DNA of 64,000 bases, taken from the NCBI GenBank assembly GCA_963788655.1, contig CAWBHS010000055.1, forward strand, positions 34,727 through 98,726. Reading direction: 5' to 3'. Source of the DNA: an uncultured Verrucomicrobiae bacterium (GTDB lineage Bacteria; Verrucomicrobiota; Verrucomicrobiia; Limisphaerales; JAFGQR01). The notes beneath the pieces are model-generated. The model made no database searches. It had not been told where the DNA came from and was given only the letters and a program-made list of their open reading frames with translations. The position numbers and the translations under genes were made by a program. Position 1 is the first letter of the stretch, and each line of letters begins with the position of its first letter. This document shows positions 1,452 through 62,009 of the stretch, piece by piece.

Positions 1452-4400
1452 CTATCCTTTGAATTTTCCCGCTTCGGTTTCGGTGGCTTTGCCCAGCGCC
1501 GCCAGCGTCTCCAGAATCTCGCCGATGCGCTCCTTGCTGGCGCGCTGGAATTGGGCGGACAACTCGGCGGCCGTGACCGGCGAACCGGCTTCCGCCAACG
1601 CCCGGCCGACGGCGTCCACTTGCGCGGACAGTGGCTTGGGCCAGGGCAGTTTCGCGACGGGTTTGGCGGGCGCGGCTTCGGCCACCGTTTCCGCGCTGGT
1701 CTCCAATTCCGTCTGGACGGCTTGCTCCGGCCGGCCGCGGCATTGGAACTCCGGGCGGAGCCAGCGGACGTGACCGCGTTTCTCCTCGGCGGCGCGTTCG
1801 TGGTTCAACGCGACCAGGCGCTCCAGGATGATCTCATCCCTATCTGCTCGGGTGGGGACCTGTTCCAGCGGGTCCGATGAATCATTTGAAGAAGTTTGGG
1901 ACGCGGTGGAACGCGTCCTTACCAGGTCGTCCCAGCCGTAGGCATGGAAGACGGCGGCATCGAGGTCGTCGTGGATTTGTTTGAGGACAGAGACGAGGCC
2001 GTGTTCGTGGATTTCTTTTTCTTTCGGAGTCAGGGACGGAGGGGGAACGGTGGGTGGGAGCACGGCTCCTTTCCCCTCACCCCGGCCCTCTCCCTGGGGG
2101 AGAGGGGGAATGGCACCCCGCGCGGCCGTTGCCGTGGCGGGCTCCGAGGATCGGGGAGCGTCCACGGCTGTTCCCTCTCCCTGGGGGAGAGGGTCAGGGT
2201 GAGGGGAGACGGGGGAGGACCGGTCGATGGCCCGCAGCTTTTCGAGGACGTTGTACATGCCGGTGAGGGTGAGGCCGGGATGCAACGCCTGCTGCCGCTT
2301 GCGATGCGCATCCAATTGCTCGCCCAATGACCGGATGCGCTCCCGTGTTGGCCCGTCAGGATCGGGGAAGGGGAAGGTTTCGAAGCAGCGAGAGTTGTTG
2401 TAACGAGGTCGATCTTCGAGCGTTCCTCCTTGCGCAAGTGCCCAGCAGATATGAACACGGCTTGAGAGCACCCCTAACCAGAACTGATCCTCAAGAGCTA
2501 TTGCAATCAACCCTTGGTCTGGCAAAACGGAACCCTCTAACTTCACGAACAACCGGAACTTTGCCGTCATTGGTGTTGCCACGTAACTTTTCAGACCTGT
2601 GAGTGCAGGCTCGCATAGTGTCACGCGTCTTGGCGAATAACCACCAACGATTCGCGTAGTCACCTGCATCCTTGGTTCTGCCAGCCTTTGCCAAACGTTC
2701 AGGTTTCACTGTTTCAGTGAGCCACTGGTAAATCTCAGGAAATTGTTCAAGAACCTGCTCCGCAGTCAGCCCAAAGAGATCAATTATAAGTTTCTTGCGC
2801 GGTCGATTTGTAATGTCTTTCCCGTTCAAAAAAGGTCGAATGCGGAGTTCAGCTCCGTGTATCCTGCCCAGGCCCAGGCGTTCGGCGTCTGATCGGTTGA
2901 CAACAAAACCACCTCCCATAAAGGTGACGCCACGAAAGCTTAGGCCAGCGTTGGAACGGAGAGTGACGGCATTCTGGCTGTATGCACCGATTGTAAGGTC
3001 AGGTGCGATTCTCCCCTTAGCCTCATGAAGCATCTCTGCGTCACCATGCCTCTGAGCGTGAGCGACTATTCTTGCTAAGAGCCCGTCAGTCTCATTCCGA
3101 CTGCAGACCGTCATTGCAATGTCCACAGCAGCGCCATCCGCCGAATCGACCCATGGATGATCAGGAATCGCGAAGACAATCGACAGCGGATTCTTGGCGT
3201 TCAGATGAGGCTCGATCACCCGACGGTTGAAAGTCTGCTTGATGCTGTTTGTTGTGATCAGGCCAAACTGCATGACCTTTCCCGCCCGGACCAGCTCAGC
3301 AGCTTTGTGCCACCAATACATTACGAAATCGCAAGATTCGGGCAGTTCTTTGTAGGTTTGTCGGATGGTTTCAGTATATCCGTCGCCCAGCGCCGCCCTC
3401 ATAAGTGAGGTTCCAATAAACGGCGGATTGCCCACCACATAATCCGCCTCCGGCCATTCTGCTTTGCGCGGATTGACGTAGTGCCAGAGCGGCACGCGGG
3501 CGGTTTCATCCGGCACGTCCTTGCCCGTCACCGGATGCGTCTTCATCGTCCGCCCATCCCAGACGGTGATGGGCCTCGTAGCAGCCGACGTGAGGAGGCT
3601 CTGACTATTGGTTGAAGGTGAAGGGTTGAGGGTTGAGGGTTCAGAAGTTTGAGCCTCGTTACCTCGGCTGCTACGGAGTTTTTCGCGTACTTCGTCCGGC
3701 AATCCAGGCAGGTCGGGGTTTTCGCGGGCCATGCCCCAGGTGATCATTTCCTTGCGGTCATAAGCGAGCACGGCGTCCTGCTTGCGAATGCTGTGTTCCT
3801 TCGAGATCACCGGATCGTCGGGCACGGCCTTGTCGCTGGTGCGGAAATGCCATTGCAGGTAACCGATCCACAGCACCAATTCGGCAATGGGCACCGCCCA
3901 CGGATTGATCTCCAGCCCGATGAACTGGTGCGGCCGGACCTTGAACTCGCGCATCTCGGTCTCCAGTTGCGGGTCGCCCAGTTCGGTGAGCAGTTCGAGC
4001 GCCTCGCCTTCGAGCCGTTTCATGTGCTCCATCGTCACGTAGAGGAAGTTGCCGGAGCCGCAGGCCGGATCAAGCACGCGGAGCCGGCAGAGCGAGTGAT
4101 GGAACCGGCGGACTTCCTCGATGGCGTCGCCGCGCCGGCCGGAGGACTCCTTCTTCAGCTTGGCCACCTTCGCGCCGTGGGTCCGGGCGGCTTTGGCGTC
4201 GCCGGTCTTCACAATGGCGGCGGATTCGGTGTCCAGTTCCGCGGTCTCGGCTTCGGCAGCGTCGGCATCGGCGGTGAGTTTGGCGGCGGCGGTCTTCACC
4301 GTTTCCCATTCCGCGCGCAAGGGATCGATGATCGTTGGGAACACCAGCCGTTCGACGTAGGCGCGCGGGGTGTAATGGGCGCCGAGCTTGTGGCGTTCCC

Positions 4401-30455: not shown

Positions 30456-30486
30456 TAACCGCAAAGAACGCATAGAACGCAAAGAA
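30456..30486. repeat. Left inverted-repeat array of GxxExxY cassette 1
   Basis: TAACCGCAAAGAACGCATAGAACGCAAAGAA; 28/31 complementary to 30905-30921 joined to 31723-31736. Confidence 0.85.
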
Positions 30487-30496
30487 ATGGAGGATT

Positions 30497-31741
30497 ATGA
30501 GAGACATGAAAGCACTGAGTGATCAGGTACGGCAAACAGCTTACGATATTCATGTGTTTCACGGGCACGGGCATTTGGAGAAGGTGTATGAAAATGCCCT
30601 GGCACATCGTCTCCGCAAGTCGGGATTGGATGTCAAGCAGCAGCATCCCATCAACGTGTTCGACGAAGACGGTACGCTGATCGGCGAGTATCTGGCTGAC
30701 TTGCTGGTGGAGAACCAACTGATCGTCGAGTTGAAAGCGGTGAAAGCCTTGGCCAACGAACACGAGGCTCAAATTCTTGGCTACCTCAAGTCTGCACGGT
30801 TGGAGCACGGCCTGTTGATCAATTTTGGTTCCTATAAGTTTCAGATCCGCAAGTATGCCCGAAGCCAATCTCCCCGATGGTCGAGCGGCTCTCTCTGGTC
30901 GTTCTTCTCTGCGATCTTTGCTCGCAGCCCATAAGGCTGCCAGTCCAGCCGGTGGAAGTCCGGCGATGGTAAATGACGATGAACCATCCAGTGATAACCG
31001 ACATGAGATTTCGGGGTGACCCGGCTCATGCAAGCTCGGTAGTAAACGTCCTGACCGGAGCAGGGCCAGCAACCTCTCCAGGCCGTAGCATCAAGCGAAT
31101 GCTGCAGCTTCGTTACGCAACCCACGCGATCCGGAATCGTGGGACTTGTGGTGGTCGAGCCGGTGCAAAGACGGCGAAGACAGAATCCACGACGAAGGCA
31201 TCGTCGAGTGCAGTCGTGGGCGCCACCGGAGTACGGGCGACGGCATGGGAGGAACGGACTGGCAGAGTAAATTGGGGACCCGCTACGGTTGGCGGGATGG
31301 ACCCGCAATCCGACGGAATAATCCATAAGCCGTGGGATGGCCGTCAGAGGCGCAGATGTGGCCATAGTAAGCAACGATCCGGTCGGACAATACAACCGAC
31401 TGGGGAGCCAAGGGCCACTGGATCCGCGGTTCAGGTCAGAAATCATCGGTGCCGCTTGGACGAAAGTCCGATTACGGATAAAACGCCGGGGATGGAGATA
31501 CGAACAGTGACGGCCTATAAGCCGGCGTGGAGACGCTGGCGAAGGTGGCCGTGGCGTGAAGCGGGTTTGAAGCCGTACTGGGGAAAACCCACCGTACGGA
31601 ATTTTAGAGGGGGTGGAGGAAACGAAATGCATGGCCTGGTAGCCGTTTGCCACGATGCCCGAAAGGGCCGATACCTTGGAAGTTACTGGCCTAAACATGT
31701 TCGCGCCTCCGCTCTACTCGATGTTCTTTGCGGTTAAATGA
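30497..31741 (+). CDS. GxxExxY protein (PD-(D/E)XK-like), interrupted near its 3' end by a group II intron (exons 30497-30921 and 31723-31741)
   Basis: GHLEKVY, ADLLVEN.LIVELKA, AQILGYL, GLLINFG; spliced end reads ..SAIFAFFAVK-stop in frame. Confidence 0.9.
30922..31722 (+). mobile_element. ORF-less group II intron (801 nt)
   Basis: Domain V AAGCCGTACTGGGGAAAACCCACCGTACGG (~31571-31600); domain VI stem with bulged A31716 and ..CTCGAT end; domain I-like CAGTCCAGCCGGTGGAAGTCCGG; no RT ORF; excision restores the host repeat and reading frame. Confidence 0.9.
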
Positions 31742-31833
31742 ATGGAACCGCAAAGAGCGCAGAGAACGCAACTCGGCATCATCGAAAACGGTCCTTGAAT
31801 TGAAGCGCACATGTCCGACACCATTTCGCTTGC

Positions 31834-34653
31834 ATGAATTTGTTCCGCATTGTTGCTGGGTTTTCGCTGATGTTGTCAGGCGCAGTTTGTCTTAGCGCCG
31901 CCTCACCCACCCAGGTTGCTTCCGTAGCCCTGGCTTGTTTGGGATCACCGTGGCCGCTGGTGATCGGGCACCGCGGATTCAGCAAGCGGGCGCCTGAAAA
32001 CACGCTTCCTTCCTTTCGGATGGGTTGGGAGGCGGGCGCTGATTTGGTGGAGTTGGATTATTATCACAGCCAGGACGGCGTACCGGTGGTCATTCATGAT
32101 GGCACGCTGGATCGCACTACAGACGCCGCCAAACGGTGGGGCCAGGAGAAGATTGCCGTCACTTCGAAGACGGTGGCGGAGCTGCAAGAACTGGATGCAG
32201 GCGTGTGGTTTAATCGTGACTTTGCCGGAACAAAGCTTCCGACGCTGGCCGAAGTCTTGCGCAGCATACCAGCCGATGGCCTCCTGCTCATCGAACGCAA
32301 AGGGGGCGATCCCGCGACGCTGCTTGAATTGCTCAAACGCACCAGCCGACGCCAACAGGTGGTTGTCCAAGCTTTCGATTGGGACTTTCTGCGCGGTTGT
32401 CACGACCTGGCGCCAGACCTTCCACTGGGCGCGCTGGGGCCGCCCTCGAGTTGGCAAGGGCACCGGCTAAGCCATGCTGAAAAGGTGCTTTCCGCCAAAT
32501 GGATTGAGGTCATCGCAGCCACGGGGGCCAAGGTCATTGGCTGGAACGATCAGGTGGATGCGCGCAGCGTGGCGCTGGCGCATGAGCGGGGCTTGCAGGT
32601 TTGGGTGTACACCATCGATGATCCGCAGCCGGCCGCGGAACTGGTCGGGCAAGGCGTGGACGGCATCATCACGAATGATCCGGAAACCATCCGCAAGCGC
32701 ATCGCACCGCGATACCCGGCTCGTGGCTCCGATGCATTTGCTCGTTCGCTGCCCAAGCCGATGATCGATCATCCCGGAAACATCTTTCTCGCCGGTGAAT
32801 TTGTTCGCCTGCGCGTGCCGGATACGGTTCCGGCGGGCGAATGGGAGTGGCGACTGAAGGATGATCAAGCGCAGGTCGTCCAGACCGGGACGGTCTCGAA
32901 TGGCGCGGGCGCTGAAAAAGGATTTGTGGACCTGGGAACGCTCGGGACCGGTTGGTATCGCCTGGAATTCGAGGCCACTTCCGGCGCAACCTCACAATGG
33001 ACATCCCTGGCGGTGCTGACACGATTGGCGGCGCCGGTGCCGGAGGACTCACCCGTTTGCCTGGATTCCGCCGCCGCCTGGTTTGCGCGCGATGACGTGG
33101 CGCAACAAGAACGCCTGACGAGCCTGGCGGCGCTGGCGGGAGTGAATTGGATACGGGACCGGCTGAAATGGAAGGAAGTGGAATTTGCTCCCGGCCAGTT
33201 TGCGGCGCGGTCCACGTATGACACCGCCGCGGACGTCCAATCGCAATGGGGCTTGAAAGTCCTCCAAGTGTTTCACGACACGCCTGCCTGGGCCAGAACC
33301 GATGGTGAGTCGGGAGGACATTTTGCCCGCGACCTCCGCACCGTTCATGATTTCTGCGCCGCGATGGCCCGGAGGTTTCACCGGCGGGTATTTGCCTGGG
33401 AACCATGGAACGAGGCCAATGTGAAAACGTTTGGCAGTCAGACCGTCGATGAAATGTGTTCCTGGCAGAAAGCGGCCTGGCTCGGTTTTAAGCGCGGTGA
33501 TCCGACAGTCCTGGTGGGCTGGAATCCCACCGCCGCCGTGCCGACACAACCGCACACCGACGGCATCATTGCCAACGAGGCAAGCAACTATTTTGACACG
33601 TACAATTATCACACGTACGACTGGCCGCATTCGTATTTGAATTTGTGGGAACCCGCCCGGGCGGCAGCGGGCGGGCGGCCGATTTGGATCACGGAGAGCG
33701 ACCGCGGAATGAAGCATGAGAACAATCCGCCGTGGTTTGATCTTTCCCCAGACGGCGAACGGTTGAAGGCGGAGTTGATGGCCCAGGAGTATGCCCAGAG
33801 CCTCTACGCCGGAGCGTCGCGGCATTTCCATTTCATTCTCGGCCAGTACCAAGAACCGAACGGCGTGCAGTTCGGTCTGCTGCGCACGGACTTGACGCCG
33901 CGTCCCGCCTACGTGGCGTTGGCGGCGGTGGGACGGTTCCTGGCGGGCGCTACCTGCCTGGGGCGATGGCAACCGGCACCCGATGTCCACGTGATTGCCT
34001 TCCGTGCGCAGCCGGATGGTCAGGCGCAGGATGTTCTGGTGATGTGGGCCGAGCGCGAAGTCGATTGGCCGGAACGCGGCAAGGCCAAGGCGTCCTGGCC
34101 GTTGCCGAAAGATGTTTCAGTAAAGGCAGTCTATGATTACTTGGGCCGGCCATTGAAAACCGGATCGCTTACCAAGTTACGTTCGGCGCCGGTCTTCGTT
34201 CTCCTACCACCGGATGGCAGTCGCAAACTGCCGCTCGAGCCGCCGCCCTCGTTACCGCAAACCAAAGCGCAACCCACGCAACCATCGTCGATTGTCCTGC
34301 AAACCATGTTTCCGCCAACGCTACGGAAGCGTGTGGAAGACAAGCCATGGTCTGAAGCCTACGCGTGGTCGTATCGATCCGATCAACCCACAGAGTTTGA
34401 ATTGGCAGTTTACAATTTTGGAACCTCCGCCGCAGAAGGCAAAATCAAATTGGAACAGGCGCCCAGCGGTTGGACGGTCACGCCGGATCACTGGCAAGCG
34501 GCGGTGGCGCCGGGAGAACGAAAAACCGTTACGGCAACGTTGACGGTCACATCCGGCTCGGACAAATCAACGAAGGAAGGCTGGGTACGACTGCGCGGCG
34601 GCTTTGGTAAAGCCGGACGACCGGTCGTGGCTTTCCGGATGGTTGAGCGATAG
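31834..34653 (+). CDS. Glycerophosphodiester phosphodiesterase fused to a clan GH-A glycoside hydrolase-like domain
   Basis: IGHRG..APENTL, ELD, VIHD.TLDRTT, VDGIITNDP; later WEPWNEAN and PIWITES. Confidence 0.85.
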   Translation: MNLFRIVAGFSLMLSGAVCLSAASPTQVASVALACLGSPWPLVIGHRGFSKRAPENTLPSFRMGWEAGADLVELDYYHSQDGVPVVIHDGTLDRTTDAAKRWGQEKIAVTSKTVAELQELDAGVWFNRDFAGTKLPTLAEVLRSIPADGLLLIERKGGDPATLLELLKRTSRRQQVVVQAFDWDFLRGCHDLAPDLPLGALGPPSSWQGHRLSHAEKVLSAKWIEVIAATGAKVIGWNDQVDARSVALAHERGLQVWVYTIDDPQPAAELVGQGVDGIITNDPETIRKRIAPRYPARGSDAFARSLPKPMIDHPGNIFLAGEFVRLRVPDTVPAGEWEWRLKDDQAQVVQTGTVSNGAGAEKGFVDLGTLGTGWYRLEFEATSGATSQWTSLAVLTRLAAPVPEDSPVCLDSAAAWFARDDVAQQERLTSLAALAGVNWIRDRLKWKEVEFAPGQFAARSTYDTAADVQSQWGLKVLQVFHDTPAWARTDGESGGHFARDLRTVHDFCAAMARRFHRRVFAWEPWNEANVKTFGSQTVDEMCSWQKAAWLGFKRGDPTVLVGWNPTAAVPTQPHTDGIIANEASNYFDTYNYHTYDWPHSYLNLWEPARAAAGGRPIWITESDRGMKHENNPPWFDLSPDGERLKAELMAQEYAQSLYAGASRHFHFILGQYQEPNGVQFGLLRTDLTPRPAYVALAAVGRFLAGATCLGRWQPAPDVHVIAFRAQPDGQAQDVLVMWAEREVDWPERGKAKASWPLPKDVSVKAVYDYLGRPLKTGSLTKLRSAPVFVLLPPDGSRKLPLEPPPSLPQTKAQPTQPSSIVLQTMFPPTLRKRVEDKPWSEAYAWSYRSDQPTEFELAVYNFGTSAAEGKIKLEQAPSGWTVTPDHWQAAVAPGERKTVTATLTVTSGSDKSTKEGWVRLRGGFGKAGRPVVAFRMVER

Positions 34654-54787: not shown

Positions 54788-55265
54788 AGACACGAATTTC
54801 ACGAATTATCACGAATTGAACTAAGGCAAAGATGGAATGGAACTAAGTTCAAAGGACGATCCGTTTATGAACTAATGAATCTTGGCCAAAGTTGACGAGG
54901 AAACCGAGTTTCAATTTGGAGGCAGCCAAGTAATTCAGCACCTGTTTGACGTGGGATTCTGTCAGCTTTTCCACGGCTTTGGCTTCAAGCAGGATTGTGT
55001 CGAAGACAACGAAATCAGCAAAATAGCGGTGCGGCAGAATGATGGTCTTGTACTGGATGTGGTATTCCTTTTCTCGGGCGAATGGAATCTCGTTTTGGGC
55101 AAATTCAAACTCGAGCGCGTCTTTGTAAATGACCTCGTCGTGCCCTTTTCCCAACTCCCCATGCACCTCCATGCAGTGGCCAATGATTTTATACGATTCC
55201 TCTTTGTAGAGTAGCTCTGACATTTGAATCCCTAGAATTCGTGATAATTCGTGTAATTAGTGTCT
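54788..55265. repeat. Inverted-repeat arrays bracketing GxxExxY cassette 2
   Basis: 54788-54817 AGACACGAATTTCACGAATTATCACGAATT versus 55236-55265, 28/30 complementary. Confidence 0.9.
54849..55223 (-). CDS. GxxExxY protein (PD-(D/E)XK-like)
   Basis: LGKGHDEVIY, ADFVVFD.ILLEAKA, QVLNYL, GFLVNFG. Confidence 0.92.
   Translation of the reverse strand: MSELLYKEESYKIIGHCMEVHGELGKGHDEVIYKDALEFEFAQNEIPFAREKEYHIQYKTIILPHRYFADFVVFDTILLEAKAVEKLTESHVKQVLNYLAASKLKLGFLVNFGQDSLVHKRIVL

Positions 55266-61934: not shown

Positions 61935-62009
<75 letters not shown>

Follow-up and report, generated by a model that had tools for sequence, protein, structure and literature searches.

The question raised by this locus, on a genome contig of an uncultured Verrucomicrobiae bacterium, is what the 801 nt are that break into a short tandem array at the end of a GxxExxY gene, and how they came to lie there. 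The window, i.e. the whole stretch of 64,000 nt that was analysed, corresponds to positions 34727-98726 of contig C55 of the genome assembly (G000), an assembly of 8.96 Mb that is split into 115 contigs and estimated as 86% complete and 5.6% contaminated; contigs, genomes and loci are given below with the prefixes C, G and L. The 801 nt, at 30922-31722 of the window, are very probably a non-autonomous group II intron without an open reading frame (ORF), which would depend on a reverse transcriptase (RT) supplied in trans and home to tandem arrays by means of its exon-binding sites EBS1 and EBS2. This reading is drawn from the structure of the element, its copy number, its common insertion site and the co-variation between guide and flank.

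The GxxExxY gene is flanked on both sides by short tandem arrays that are mutually inverted, and the 801 nt break into the second unit of the downstream array, which is laid out as TTCTCTGCG ATCTTTGC-intron-G TTCTTTGCG GTTA. The features at the junction are as follows.

30456-30486, minus strand: upstream array with three 9-mer units CGCAAAGAA/CGCATAGAA at 30460-30486 (repeat search: 3 copies of 9 nt, spaced 9)
30497-30934, plus strand: GxxExxY gene, unspliced reading of 145 aa (ORF list; NCBIfam TIGR04256)
30909-30914, plus strand: IBS2 (CTGCGA), intron-binding site with 4/6 pairs to EBS2 in the C55 copy
30915-30921, plus strand: IBS1 (TCTTTGC), the 7 nt of the 5' exon that directly precede the intron, part of the array unit ATCTTTGC(G)
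30922-31722, plus strand: ORF-less group II intron of 801 nt, UCGCAG..CUCGAU (RF02003 match; ends identical in three copies)
31723-31772, plus strand: 3' exon, made up of the array remainder (G TTCTTTGCG GTTA), a hairpin and then an inverted array

Removal of 30922-31722 joins ..TTCTCTGCGATCTTTGC to GTTCTTTGCGGTTA. As the initial annotation had proposed, the 31 nt so formed agree with the reverse complement of 30456-30486 in 28 of 31 positions without a gap, and the frame regains the end ..AIFAFFAVK-stop, where the unspliced ORF (30497-30934) ends ..AIFARSP-stop. In the NCBIfam scan the GxxExxY protein matched TIGR04256 with 123.3 bits (cut-off 35) over residues 7-120 of 145. The intron is thus in the non-domain tail of the gene, and unspliced RNA, with its end ..ARSP-stop, would still encode the GxxExxY domain. 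The hairpin of the 3' exon has arms of 11 nt (31725-31735 and 31746-31756) that are 100% complementary in the inverted-repeat search.

As judged from its sequence, the element is a group II intron ribozyme, IIB-like, of the Rfam type D1D4-4, with a 5-nt domain V loop as in classes E and F. Among the Rfam models to which the initial annotation had pointed, RF02003 (group-II-D1D4-4) matched 30946-31093 with 57.9 bits (gathering score 49, E 3.9e-10), whereas RF00029, the model for domains V and VI, did not match (see below). A permissive Rfam scan of 30700-31950 added only a sub-threshold twister-sister match (19.1 bits vs 34). The ORFs inside 30922-31722 are mechanical only, and none of the family members examined carries an RT ORF, so that the description of the element as ORF-less holds. 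The parts of the intron, all on the plus strand, are listed here.

30937-31265, plus strand: domain I, with the closing stem CUGCCAGUCC (30937-30946) / GGACUGGCAG (31256-31265)
31115-31120, plus strand: EBS2 (ACGCAA), just 5' of the hairpin CCCACG..CGUGGG and ~45 nt upstream of EBS1
31159-31175, plus strand: EBS1 hairpin GCCG-GU-GCAAAGA-CGGC, stem GCCG/CGGC with a 9-nt loop (minimum free energy (MFE) fold)
31277-31353, plus strand: domain II (consensus fold and covariation counts)
31358-31418, plus strand: domain III (consensus fold and covariation counts)
31419-31569, plus strand: domain IV, short (~150 nt) and without an ORF (consensus fold)
31570-31605, plus strand: domain V, AAGCCGUAC-UGGG-GAAAA-CCCA-(CC bulge)-GUACGG-(AA bulge)-UUUU (MFE fold)
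31605-31722, plus strand: domain VI, 13-bp basal stem with an inserted arm (covariation of helix 37)

The consensus fold with six domains and 253 pairs was obtained with RNAalifold from an alignment (A1) of 43 full-length relatives, mutually <96% identical and with a mean column identity of 88%. In A1, 96.9% of 10,790 cells are paired, as compared with 93.4% in shuffles, and double changes were found in 80 of the 253 pairs, as compared with 36.1 +/- 3.4 in shuffled alignments (0 of 500 reach 80) and 24-35 in six slid controls. As the fold was predicted from A1 itself, the comparison with the slid controls is biased in its favour, and the compensatory changes are the stronger point. In domain I the closing helix (helix 3) reaches 99.1% pairing; this 10-bp stem takes the place, in the consensus fold, of a 5'-terminal hairpin GCAGCC/GGCUGC considered at first.

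Domains V and VI, which had been called recognisable, can be drawn in full. The MFE fold of domain V (-16.3 kcal/mol, z -2.96) has the 5-nt loop GAAAA, the feature of classes E and F, and pairs the AGC triad canonically (C-G, G.U and A-U, to U-U-G); an alternative drawing with A.A and G.A mismatches at the triad was discarded, the fold with the AA bulge being the MFE one. The domain is invariant or nearly so in A1, apart from one row that lacks the stretch through a deletion. The basal stem of domain VI (helix 37) is 99.6% paired, with double changes in four pairs, and a bulged branch-point A is predicted at 31716, the seventh nucleotide from the 3' end, which reads AU. The inserted arm of ~75 nt in domain VI is found as well in an RT-bearing intron of genome G146, in which the 5-nt loop of domain V is present and the AA bulge absent.

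The boundaries of the intron are fixed by its relatives in G151, a metagenome-assembled genome (MAG) of 11.4 Mb from long reads, where introns are spaced by one 9-nt unit (GTATTTCGC-intron-GTATTTCGC-intron-GGTTCATTC) and empty arrays keep the 9-nt register. The 5' boundary is fixed also by IBS1, which abuts it.

Pairing between guide and target had been claimed in the initial annotation, and it is borne out. The loop segment GCAAAGA (31165-31171) of the hairpin at 31159-31175 is complementary in 7/7 positions to TCTTTGC (30915-30921), immediately before the insertion point. It also lies where an EBS1 belongs, forming the core of the loop that caps a hairpin of domain I, ~245 nt from the start of the intron. 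The stem of this hairpin (helix 18) shows double changes in three of four pairs, and the loop position covaries with the 5' flank in relatives. For this comparison, 83 copies with at least 16 nt of upstream flank were tabulated, and 75 were counted after eight had been dropped (three after another intron or flankless, one with an N, and four with the loop segment unaligned at 15 nt). EBS1 and IBS1 pair in 6.27 of 7 positions on average over the 75 copies, or in 5.92 if only Watson-Crick pairs are taken; seven pairs were found in 36 copies, six in 26, five in 11, and four and three in one copy each. Altogether 22 different EBS1 words and 37 different IBS1 words are used, and they combine in 45 ways, for which the mean is 6.02, as compared with 4.62 +/- 0.13 (maximum 5.02) when flanks were shuffled 2000 times. 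The shuffled baseline is high because all targets resemble one another. Examples of the pairs are as follows.

EBS1 GCAAAGA: flank word TCTTTGC
EBS1 GCAGAGA: flank word TCTCTGC
EBS1 GCGAAAA: flank word TTTTCGC
EBS1 ACGAATT: flank word ATTCGT
EBS1 ACGGATT: flank word AATCCGT
EBS1 GCTAATT: flank word ATTAGC
EBS1 CCTAACA: flank word GTTAGG
EBS1 GCAGATG: flank word CATCTGT

For EBS2 and IBS2 (spacer 0-2 nt, 62 combinations) the mean is 4.76 of 6, as compared with 4.30 +/- 0.07 in shuffles (maximum 4.52), a signal weaker than that of EBS1 and in the same direction. The first base of the 3' exon is G in 3/3 copies of the own genome and in 15/16 copies of G151. The intron family would hence find repeat arrays by base pairing between RNA and DNA, each EBS1 word fitting its own repeat family.

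Three full copies of the intron are present in the own genome, on three contigs (C55, C27:79816-80616 and C60:9956-10757, with 100, 99.6 and 99.6% identity), along with three fragments on C49 (positions 288-445 of the intron, 89%), C81 (positions 1-67, 94%) and C88 (positions 773-800). The flanks of the full copies are given below.

Full copy 1: ..tctctgcgatctttgc-intron-gttctttgcggtta
Full copy 2: ..tatctgcgttctttgc-intron-ggccacatt
Full copy 3: ..tctttgcgttctttgc-intron-ggttgattc

Sister copies thus lie at the same sequence and not at unrelated ones: all three share one 13-nt word, ..GCG(A/T)TCTTTGC, before the intron and G after it, while the farther flanks are unrelated. IBS2 of the C60 copy is TTGCGT, with a 6/6 match to EBS2. 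The C81 fragment starts with the same first base, after ..cgattcgt of another repeat family. The three near-identical copies suggest a recent spread in this genome. The target had been taken for a multicopy repeat belonging to a selfish GxxExxY cassette; the multicopy short tandem array stands, but not the cassette as such, there being only four GxxExxY genes in the own genome and the other two copies lying behind other genes (the C27 copy 50 nt behind a different gene).

The motif GCGNTCTTTGC occurs three times in the window, more often than chance predicts (0.37 expected; 0 of 100 shuffles reach 3). The second GxxExxY gene of the window (54855-55199, minus strand) has no intron and repeats the inverted-array layout of the first (region 54791-55263), with CACGAATTAT x2.8 at 54791-54817 and AATTCGTGT x3 at 55236-55263. 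In the own genome, Tandem Repeats Finder listed 246 arrays of period 9/10 that hold 2.5 or more copies; most frequent among their units are AT-rich words that end in CACG or GCGC (e.g. AATTACACG, AATGGACACG and AAAGAACGC), and a conserved ..ACGGCTAAG lies ~20 nt downstream of many ATTCGTGGTT array ends. The window also includes a tRNA gene at 61935-62006 (RF00005, 70.5 bits).

By DNA search, the intron was matched in 8 of 101 related genomes, the own genome included; G071 has a deletion derivative and fragments, and G004 a fragment. The copy in G056 (L038 on C363, L032 on C256) is split after GGCCATAGTAAG by an element resembling an insertion sequence (IS), with inverted ends TGTCATTTTGCAC..AAAATCACCCACC, and both contigs end within that element. 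The pattern of the 5' end was found in 29 stretches of genome contigs, from Verrucomicrobiota or an unclassified long-read MAG (G151) with the exception of a 1.3-kb contig filed under a Syntrophobacter MAG. G151 has 29 RF02003 matches and ~18 intron copies, some in adjacent repeat units; the copies follow GTATTCCGC, GTATTTCGC or CTTTTCGC units, with intron-9 nt-intron tandems among them. Sixteen full copies were aligned, and their median pairwise identity of 98.6% (range 84.8-99.9) points to a recent burst. At L066:4297/4298 (G151) and at the metagenome locus L132, introns stand head to tail without an exon base between them.

In metagenome contigs the same 5'-end pattern occurs in 94 stretches, and 80 loci with 81 matches were examined. 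Of these matches, 47 end at 750-804 nt and one at 261 nt; the other 34 lack the strict end motif, and for 23 of them fewer than 790 nt of contig remain, while seven align full length, two stop at ~660-669 and two are short fragments. No insert in domain IV was found in any of the copies examined, and the family is therefore ORF-less as far as seen.

The clade extends beyond this phylum. The exact 32-nt word of domain V, GGAAU included, was found in genome contigs of many phyla, in more than 123 stretches, the matches listed including records of Acidobacteriota, Planctomycetota, Alpha- and Deltaproteobacteria, Binatia, Nitrospirota, NC10 and others. Among the matches listed, no RT-like ORF directly adjoins domain V in any of the 61 occurrences with at least 2 kb upstream; in six, an ORF of 350 aa or more contains a YADD-like motif but ends at least 683 nt upstream of the domain. 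The A1 profile aligns most of these loci from ~1-15 to ~704, i.e. domain I through domain V. Among 21 distinct loci inspected, those of Pirellulales, Binatia, Terriglobia, Isosphaeraceae and a deltaproteobacterial record again lie behind short tandem words and have a complementary 7-mer near position 245. One planctomycete subfamily has a non-repeat insertion site.

From these observations we infer splicing, retrohoming and a helper as follows. Being inserted in the sense direction in the tail of the GxxExxY gene, the intron would be transcribed with that gene. The six-domain ribozyme would fold, branch at A31716 and rejoin ..TCTTTGC to G, with the expected spliced junction ..TCTTTGC-GTTCTTTGC, i.e. 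..ATCTTTGC-GTTCTTTGCGG. The lariat, in a ribonucleoprotein with an RT supplied in trans, would then reverse-splice into DNA sites picked by EBS1 (GCAAAGA) and EBS2 (ACGCAA). Together these guides read ~13 nt, more than one 9-mer unit, so that each array of the repeat family would represent one or several homing sites.

Several observations weigh against the view of an active, homing intron. RF00029 has no match at E<=1 in 30700-31950, and none of the three copies was matched in the genome scan with this model; the model misses the element because of the extra AA bulge in domain V and the ~75-nt arm in domain VI. The bulge (A31600, A31601) lies directly beside the domain V triad, and, given this bulge and the result with RF00029, catalytic competence is assumed. 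The 5' end, UCGCA, departs from GUGYG, and the first two bases vary in the family (UC, UU, GU, CG), with relatives that start UUGCAG, GUGCAG or CGGCAG and, in other phyla, also AUGCAG, CUGCAG or CCGCAG; RT-bearing D1D4-4 introns start GUGCG or GUGUG. Contigs from RNA libraries of four studies, matched at 96-100% identity on 30600-31900, cover 30938-31671 only, reach neither exon and bridge no junction; such libraries may contain DNA, and the contigs show neither splicing nor, strictly, transcription.

Empty targets count on the same side. In the window, two perfect target-like motifs are empty: the upstream array read on the minus strand, which presents GCGTTCTTTGC followed by GGTTAC (motif match 30461-30471), and 31750-31760 on the minus strand of the 3' exon (motif scan). 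In the own genome GCG.TCTTTGCG occurs 20 times, ~8-9 of them in arrays by printed context, and all are empty. The C60 copy lies in a repeated module, and an identical second target 205 nt downstream is empty; an additional G in the 5' arm of domain V (AGCCGGUAC, near C60:10605) also lengthens this copy to 802 nt, and the copy may be inactive. Lastly, no RT-bearing RF02003 intron was found in the own genome among 150 of 429 candidates scored in an assembly that is 86% complete, and G151 likewise yielded none of the same covariance-model type.

This last point bears on the helper. In keeping with the initial annotation, which had seen no RT in the element or the window, none of the 13 RVT_1 matches in the own genome lies on C55. 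The matches represent three intron families: D1D4-7-type RT introns on C50, C46, C99 and C44, D1D4-6-type RT introns on C24 and C38, and a third family, here termed C39-type. An RT-encoding relative had been suggested as a thing to look for. RF02003 matches 15 of 151 genomes of the order, and at five of the six strong loci examined there an RT ORF lies ~400 nt downstream; such relatives thus exist elsewhere in the order, but none of that type was found among the candidates scored in the own genome. For the RT of G146, only close verrucomicrobial relatives were found.

The C39-type intron is present in five copies of 1,978-1,987 nt, 99.85% identical, with an RT ORF of 490 aa that lacks the endonuclease domain (C39:88433-90410 (L012), C60:18463-20441, C60:345890-347872, C68:5245-7232 and C107:1383-3370). 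It is inserted in 9/10-mer arrays, one copy being 7.7 kb from the ORF-less copy on C60. Identity between the copies sets in only at GAAAGCGCC; the variable GTGY..TYCG that precedes this point is target sequence, as the intact array at C59:69315 shows; hence the intron seems to start with GAAAG rather than GUGYG. CGGAUG is its candidate EBS1. The RNA blocks CGUUAC.CAA, GCCGUAGC, CAUAGUA.GC and GGGAGCCAAGG are common to this intron and the ORF-less element. When compared with the RTs of D1D4-4 introns, the C39-type RT shows 41-47% identity and the others show 27-34%. In the own genome this five-copy, endonuclease-less RT intron has close to an even chance of being the helper; a D1D4-6-type RT intron is an unlikely candidate for that part, and the remaining chance is left to some other RT, for instance of the D1D4-7 type, or to an RT that the assembly lacks. 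A supposed remnant of an RT start codon in the element (GGGAUGGAG, compared with the start of the C39-type RT) was rejected, since most family members read GGGGACGGAG there.

Co-occurrence of RTs singles out no helper: G151 has neither C39-type nor D1D4-4 RT introns, and five more host genomes have 11-55 RVT_1 matches each. This leads to the alternative that survives best, though we think it rather unlikely, namely that the helper is an intron of a different class (D1D4-6 or D1D4-7 type) or a free-standing RT, and that the clade behaves as a short interspersed element (SINE) that borrows heterologous RTs. D1D4-6 and D1D4-7 are the only RT-intron classes found in both recent-burst genomes; G151 holds ~18 fresh copies, yet its RT introns are of these two types only, and the RVT_1 matches in all five further host genomes are compatible with such borrowing. 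At three twintron-like loci, L231 (30-2655), L255 and L260, in MAG records labelled Alphaproteobacteria, Candidatus Sulfopaludibacter and Acidobacteriota, a D1D4-6-type intron contains an ORF-less intron of the D1D4-4 type that begins ~60-100 nt past the stop of its RT ORF, which hints at a link with the D1D4-6 class. Against this, group II RTs are normally specific for their own RNA, the D1D4-6 RT of the own genome is 27% identical to the RTs of D1D4-4 introns as compared with 44% for the C39-type RT, and co-occurrence in two genomes is weak evidence.

Two observations were made beside the helper search. The own genome has a second ORF-less family, of the D1D4-7 type, in seven copies, with RF00029 at ~49.6 bits and a D1D4-7 match ~640 nt upstream (C17:37447-37524, C49:296022-296099, C59:4354-4431, C59:60959-61036, C80:3330-3407, C93:31095-31172 and C9:104770-104847); no RVT_1 match lies near any of the seven. 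At L107 (G151:C4), Acido-Lenti-1 RNA matches of 32.8 and 37.7 bits (cut-off 37) lie at 770-832 and 3149-3207, on either side of a D1D4-7-type RT intron.

That the element is an immobile remnant, whose RT is now gone and which splices only or is an inert insert, appears improbable. The 5' end other than GUGYG, the extra bulge in domain V and the failure of RF00029 would then be signs of decay; the lack of a cognate RT of the same RNA type, the empty target-like sites and the deleted, fragmented or IS-split copies in G071 and G056 would fit as well. However, decay is not expected to leave the odd features invariant or nearly so in 43 diverged relatives whose helices show compensatory changes. 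The copies are 99.6-100% identical in the own genome and have a median identity of 98.6% in G151, and EBS1 has switched target on at least 22 occasions, with a fitting flank in every case. The repeated flanking arrays could support a spread of the copies as DNA, through recombination or gene conversion from array to array and without an RNA intermediate, but such a spread is very hard to credit, because it predicts neither the same two exact ends in every copy, nor the one orientation relative to the array word, nor guide loops that fit the flank even where the flank word differs between subfamilies.

A non-autonomous intron that homes with a borrowed RT would not be without precedent. ORF-less introns mobilised in trans are described in PMC8643678 and PMC4424553. 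Like the ORF-less IIB1 introns of Thermosynechococcus elongatus (Mohr et al. 2010, PMC2882425; PMC8643678), the elements studied here are gene-less derivatives that multiply in one genome, keep EBS-IBS pairing and would need an RT from elsewhere. In T. elongatus, however, the helper is described as a close relative from the same RNA family that is present in the same genome, whereas among the candidates scored here none was an RT-bearing intron of the same covariance-model type; unlike those introns, the present clade is ORF-less throughout, spans many phyla, has a 5' end other than GUGYG and an extra domain V bulge, and favours arrays.

In its small, IIB-like ribozyme and 5-nt domain V loop the element resembles the IIF intron Ge.ur.I1-1 from Geobacter uraniireducens (PMC3753933). 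In that paper, Nagy et al. 2013 give a 5-nt loop in place of the tetraloop as a mark of classes E and F, along with an alpha-prime at the tip of a stem-loop in DId3 and an extra bulge loop in DId3. The 5' exon of that intron has repeated IBS1/IBS2 words (AUUCG, CGUGU) 9 and 19 nt upstream, which serve as alternative 5' splice sites in vitro (PMC3753933), and they have the same word and period as arrays in the own genome. PMC3753933 does not treat the upstream words as a homing target, the word 'repeat' occurring in it 0 times. Ge.ur.I1-1 encodes its own RT and has a predicted GUGYG end, whereas the element has neither.

The delta-ORF form of EcKTE56.groEL (Gomes et al. 2025, PMC12584367) is mobilised by an RT in trans, and a second copy integrates directly before the resident one to give head-to-tail introns with no exon between, an arrangement matched by the 0-nt junctions at L066 and L132. 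In other respects this IIB1 intron of E. coli differs: its only target on the chromosome is the groEL stop codon, its RT belongs to CL1 and has an endonuclease domain, and its 5' end is canonical (PMC12584367). With class C introns (IIC; PMC4424553) the family shares a multicopy, hairpin-forming, non-coding DNA motif as landing pad, as a consequence of which insertion would do the host little harm. IIC introns are described there as lacking EBS2 and reading the shape of a stem-loop, whereas the element reads the sequence of a repeat unit with EBS1 (7 nt) and EBS2; as its EBS2 is present and covaries and its EBS1 has 7 nt, membership in class C was ruled out. Homing sites, terminators and attC are the target habits given for bacterial introns by Zimmerly and Semper (PMC4424553). 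A search of the literature, mostly by listings, for group II introns homing to arrays or to repetitive extragenic palindromic (REP) sequences, and for GxxExxY, did not find the habit described.

Bacterial ORF-less introns are called rare in PMC4424553, with a caveat on unusual domain V structures, and ORF-less introns were detected through RF00029 by Miura et al. (PMC8919778). The present family fits the exception named in PMC4424553, since its domain V word occurs in more than 123 stretches, 0 of 61 occurrences among the matches listed have an abutting RT ORF, and RF00029 does not score it. It is a tentative possibility, which we would put below an even chance, that the ORF-less clade of many phyla is the group II counterpart of a SINE, whose ribozyme still works with a first base other than G and two bulges in domain V, and which retargets between short repeat families and multiplies without an RT intron of its own RNA class. 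If so, the clade must borrow heterologous RTs, because host genomes hold no RT intron of that class, and it would have been missed by surveys that call bacterial ORF-less introns rare, because its domains V and VI escape the standard model.

The trans-dependent group II intron as such is a known type; what appears to be new is a widespread ORF-less clade with an odd 5' end and domain V that is adapted to tandem arrays. Its at least 22 retargeted EBS1 guides, together with their DNA sites, constitute a natural data set on the change of specificity in group II introns, and the changes at the 5' end and near the triad are tolerated variants that are directly testable in vitro. For annotation, the family explains inserts of ~800 nt in repeat arrays of Verrucomicrobiota, Planctomycetota, Acidobacteriota and other phyla.

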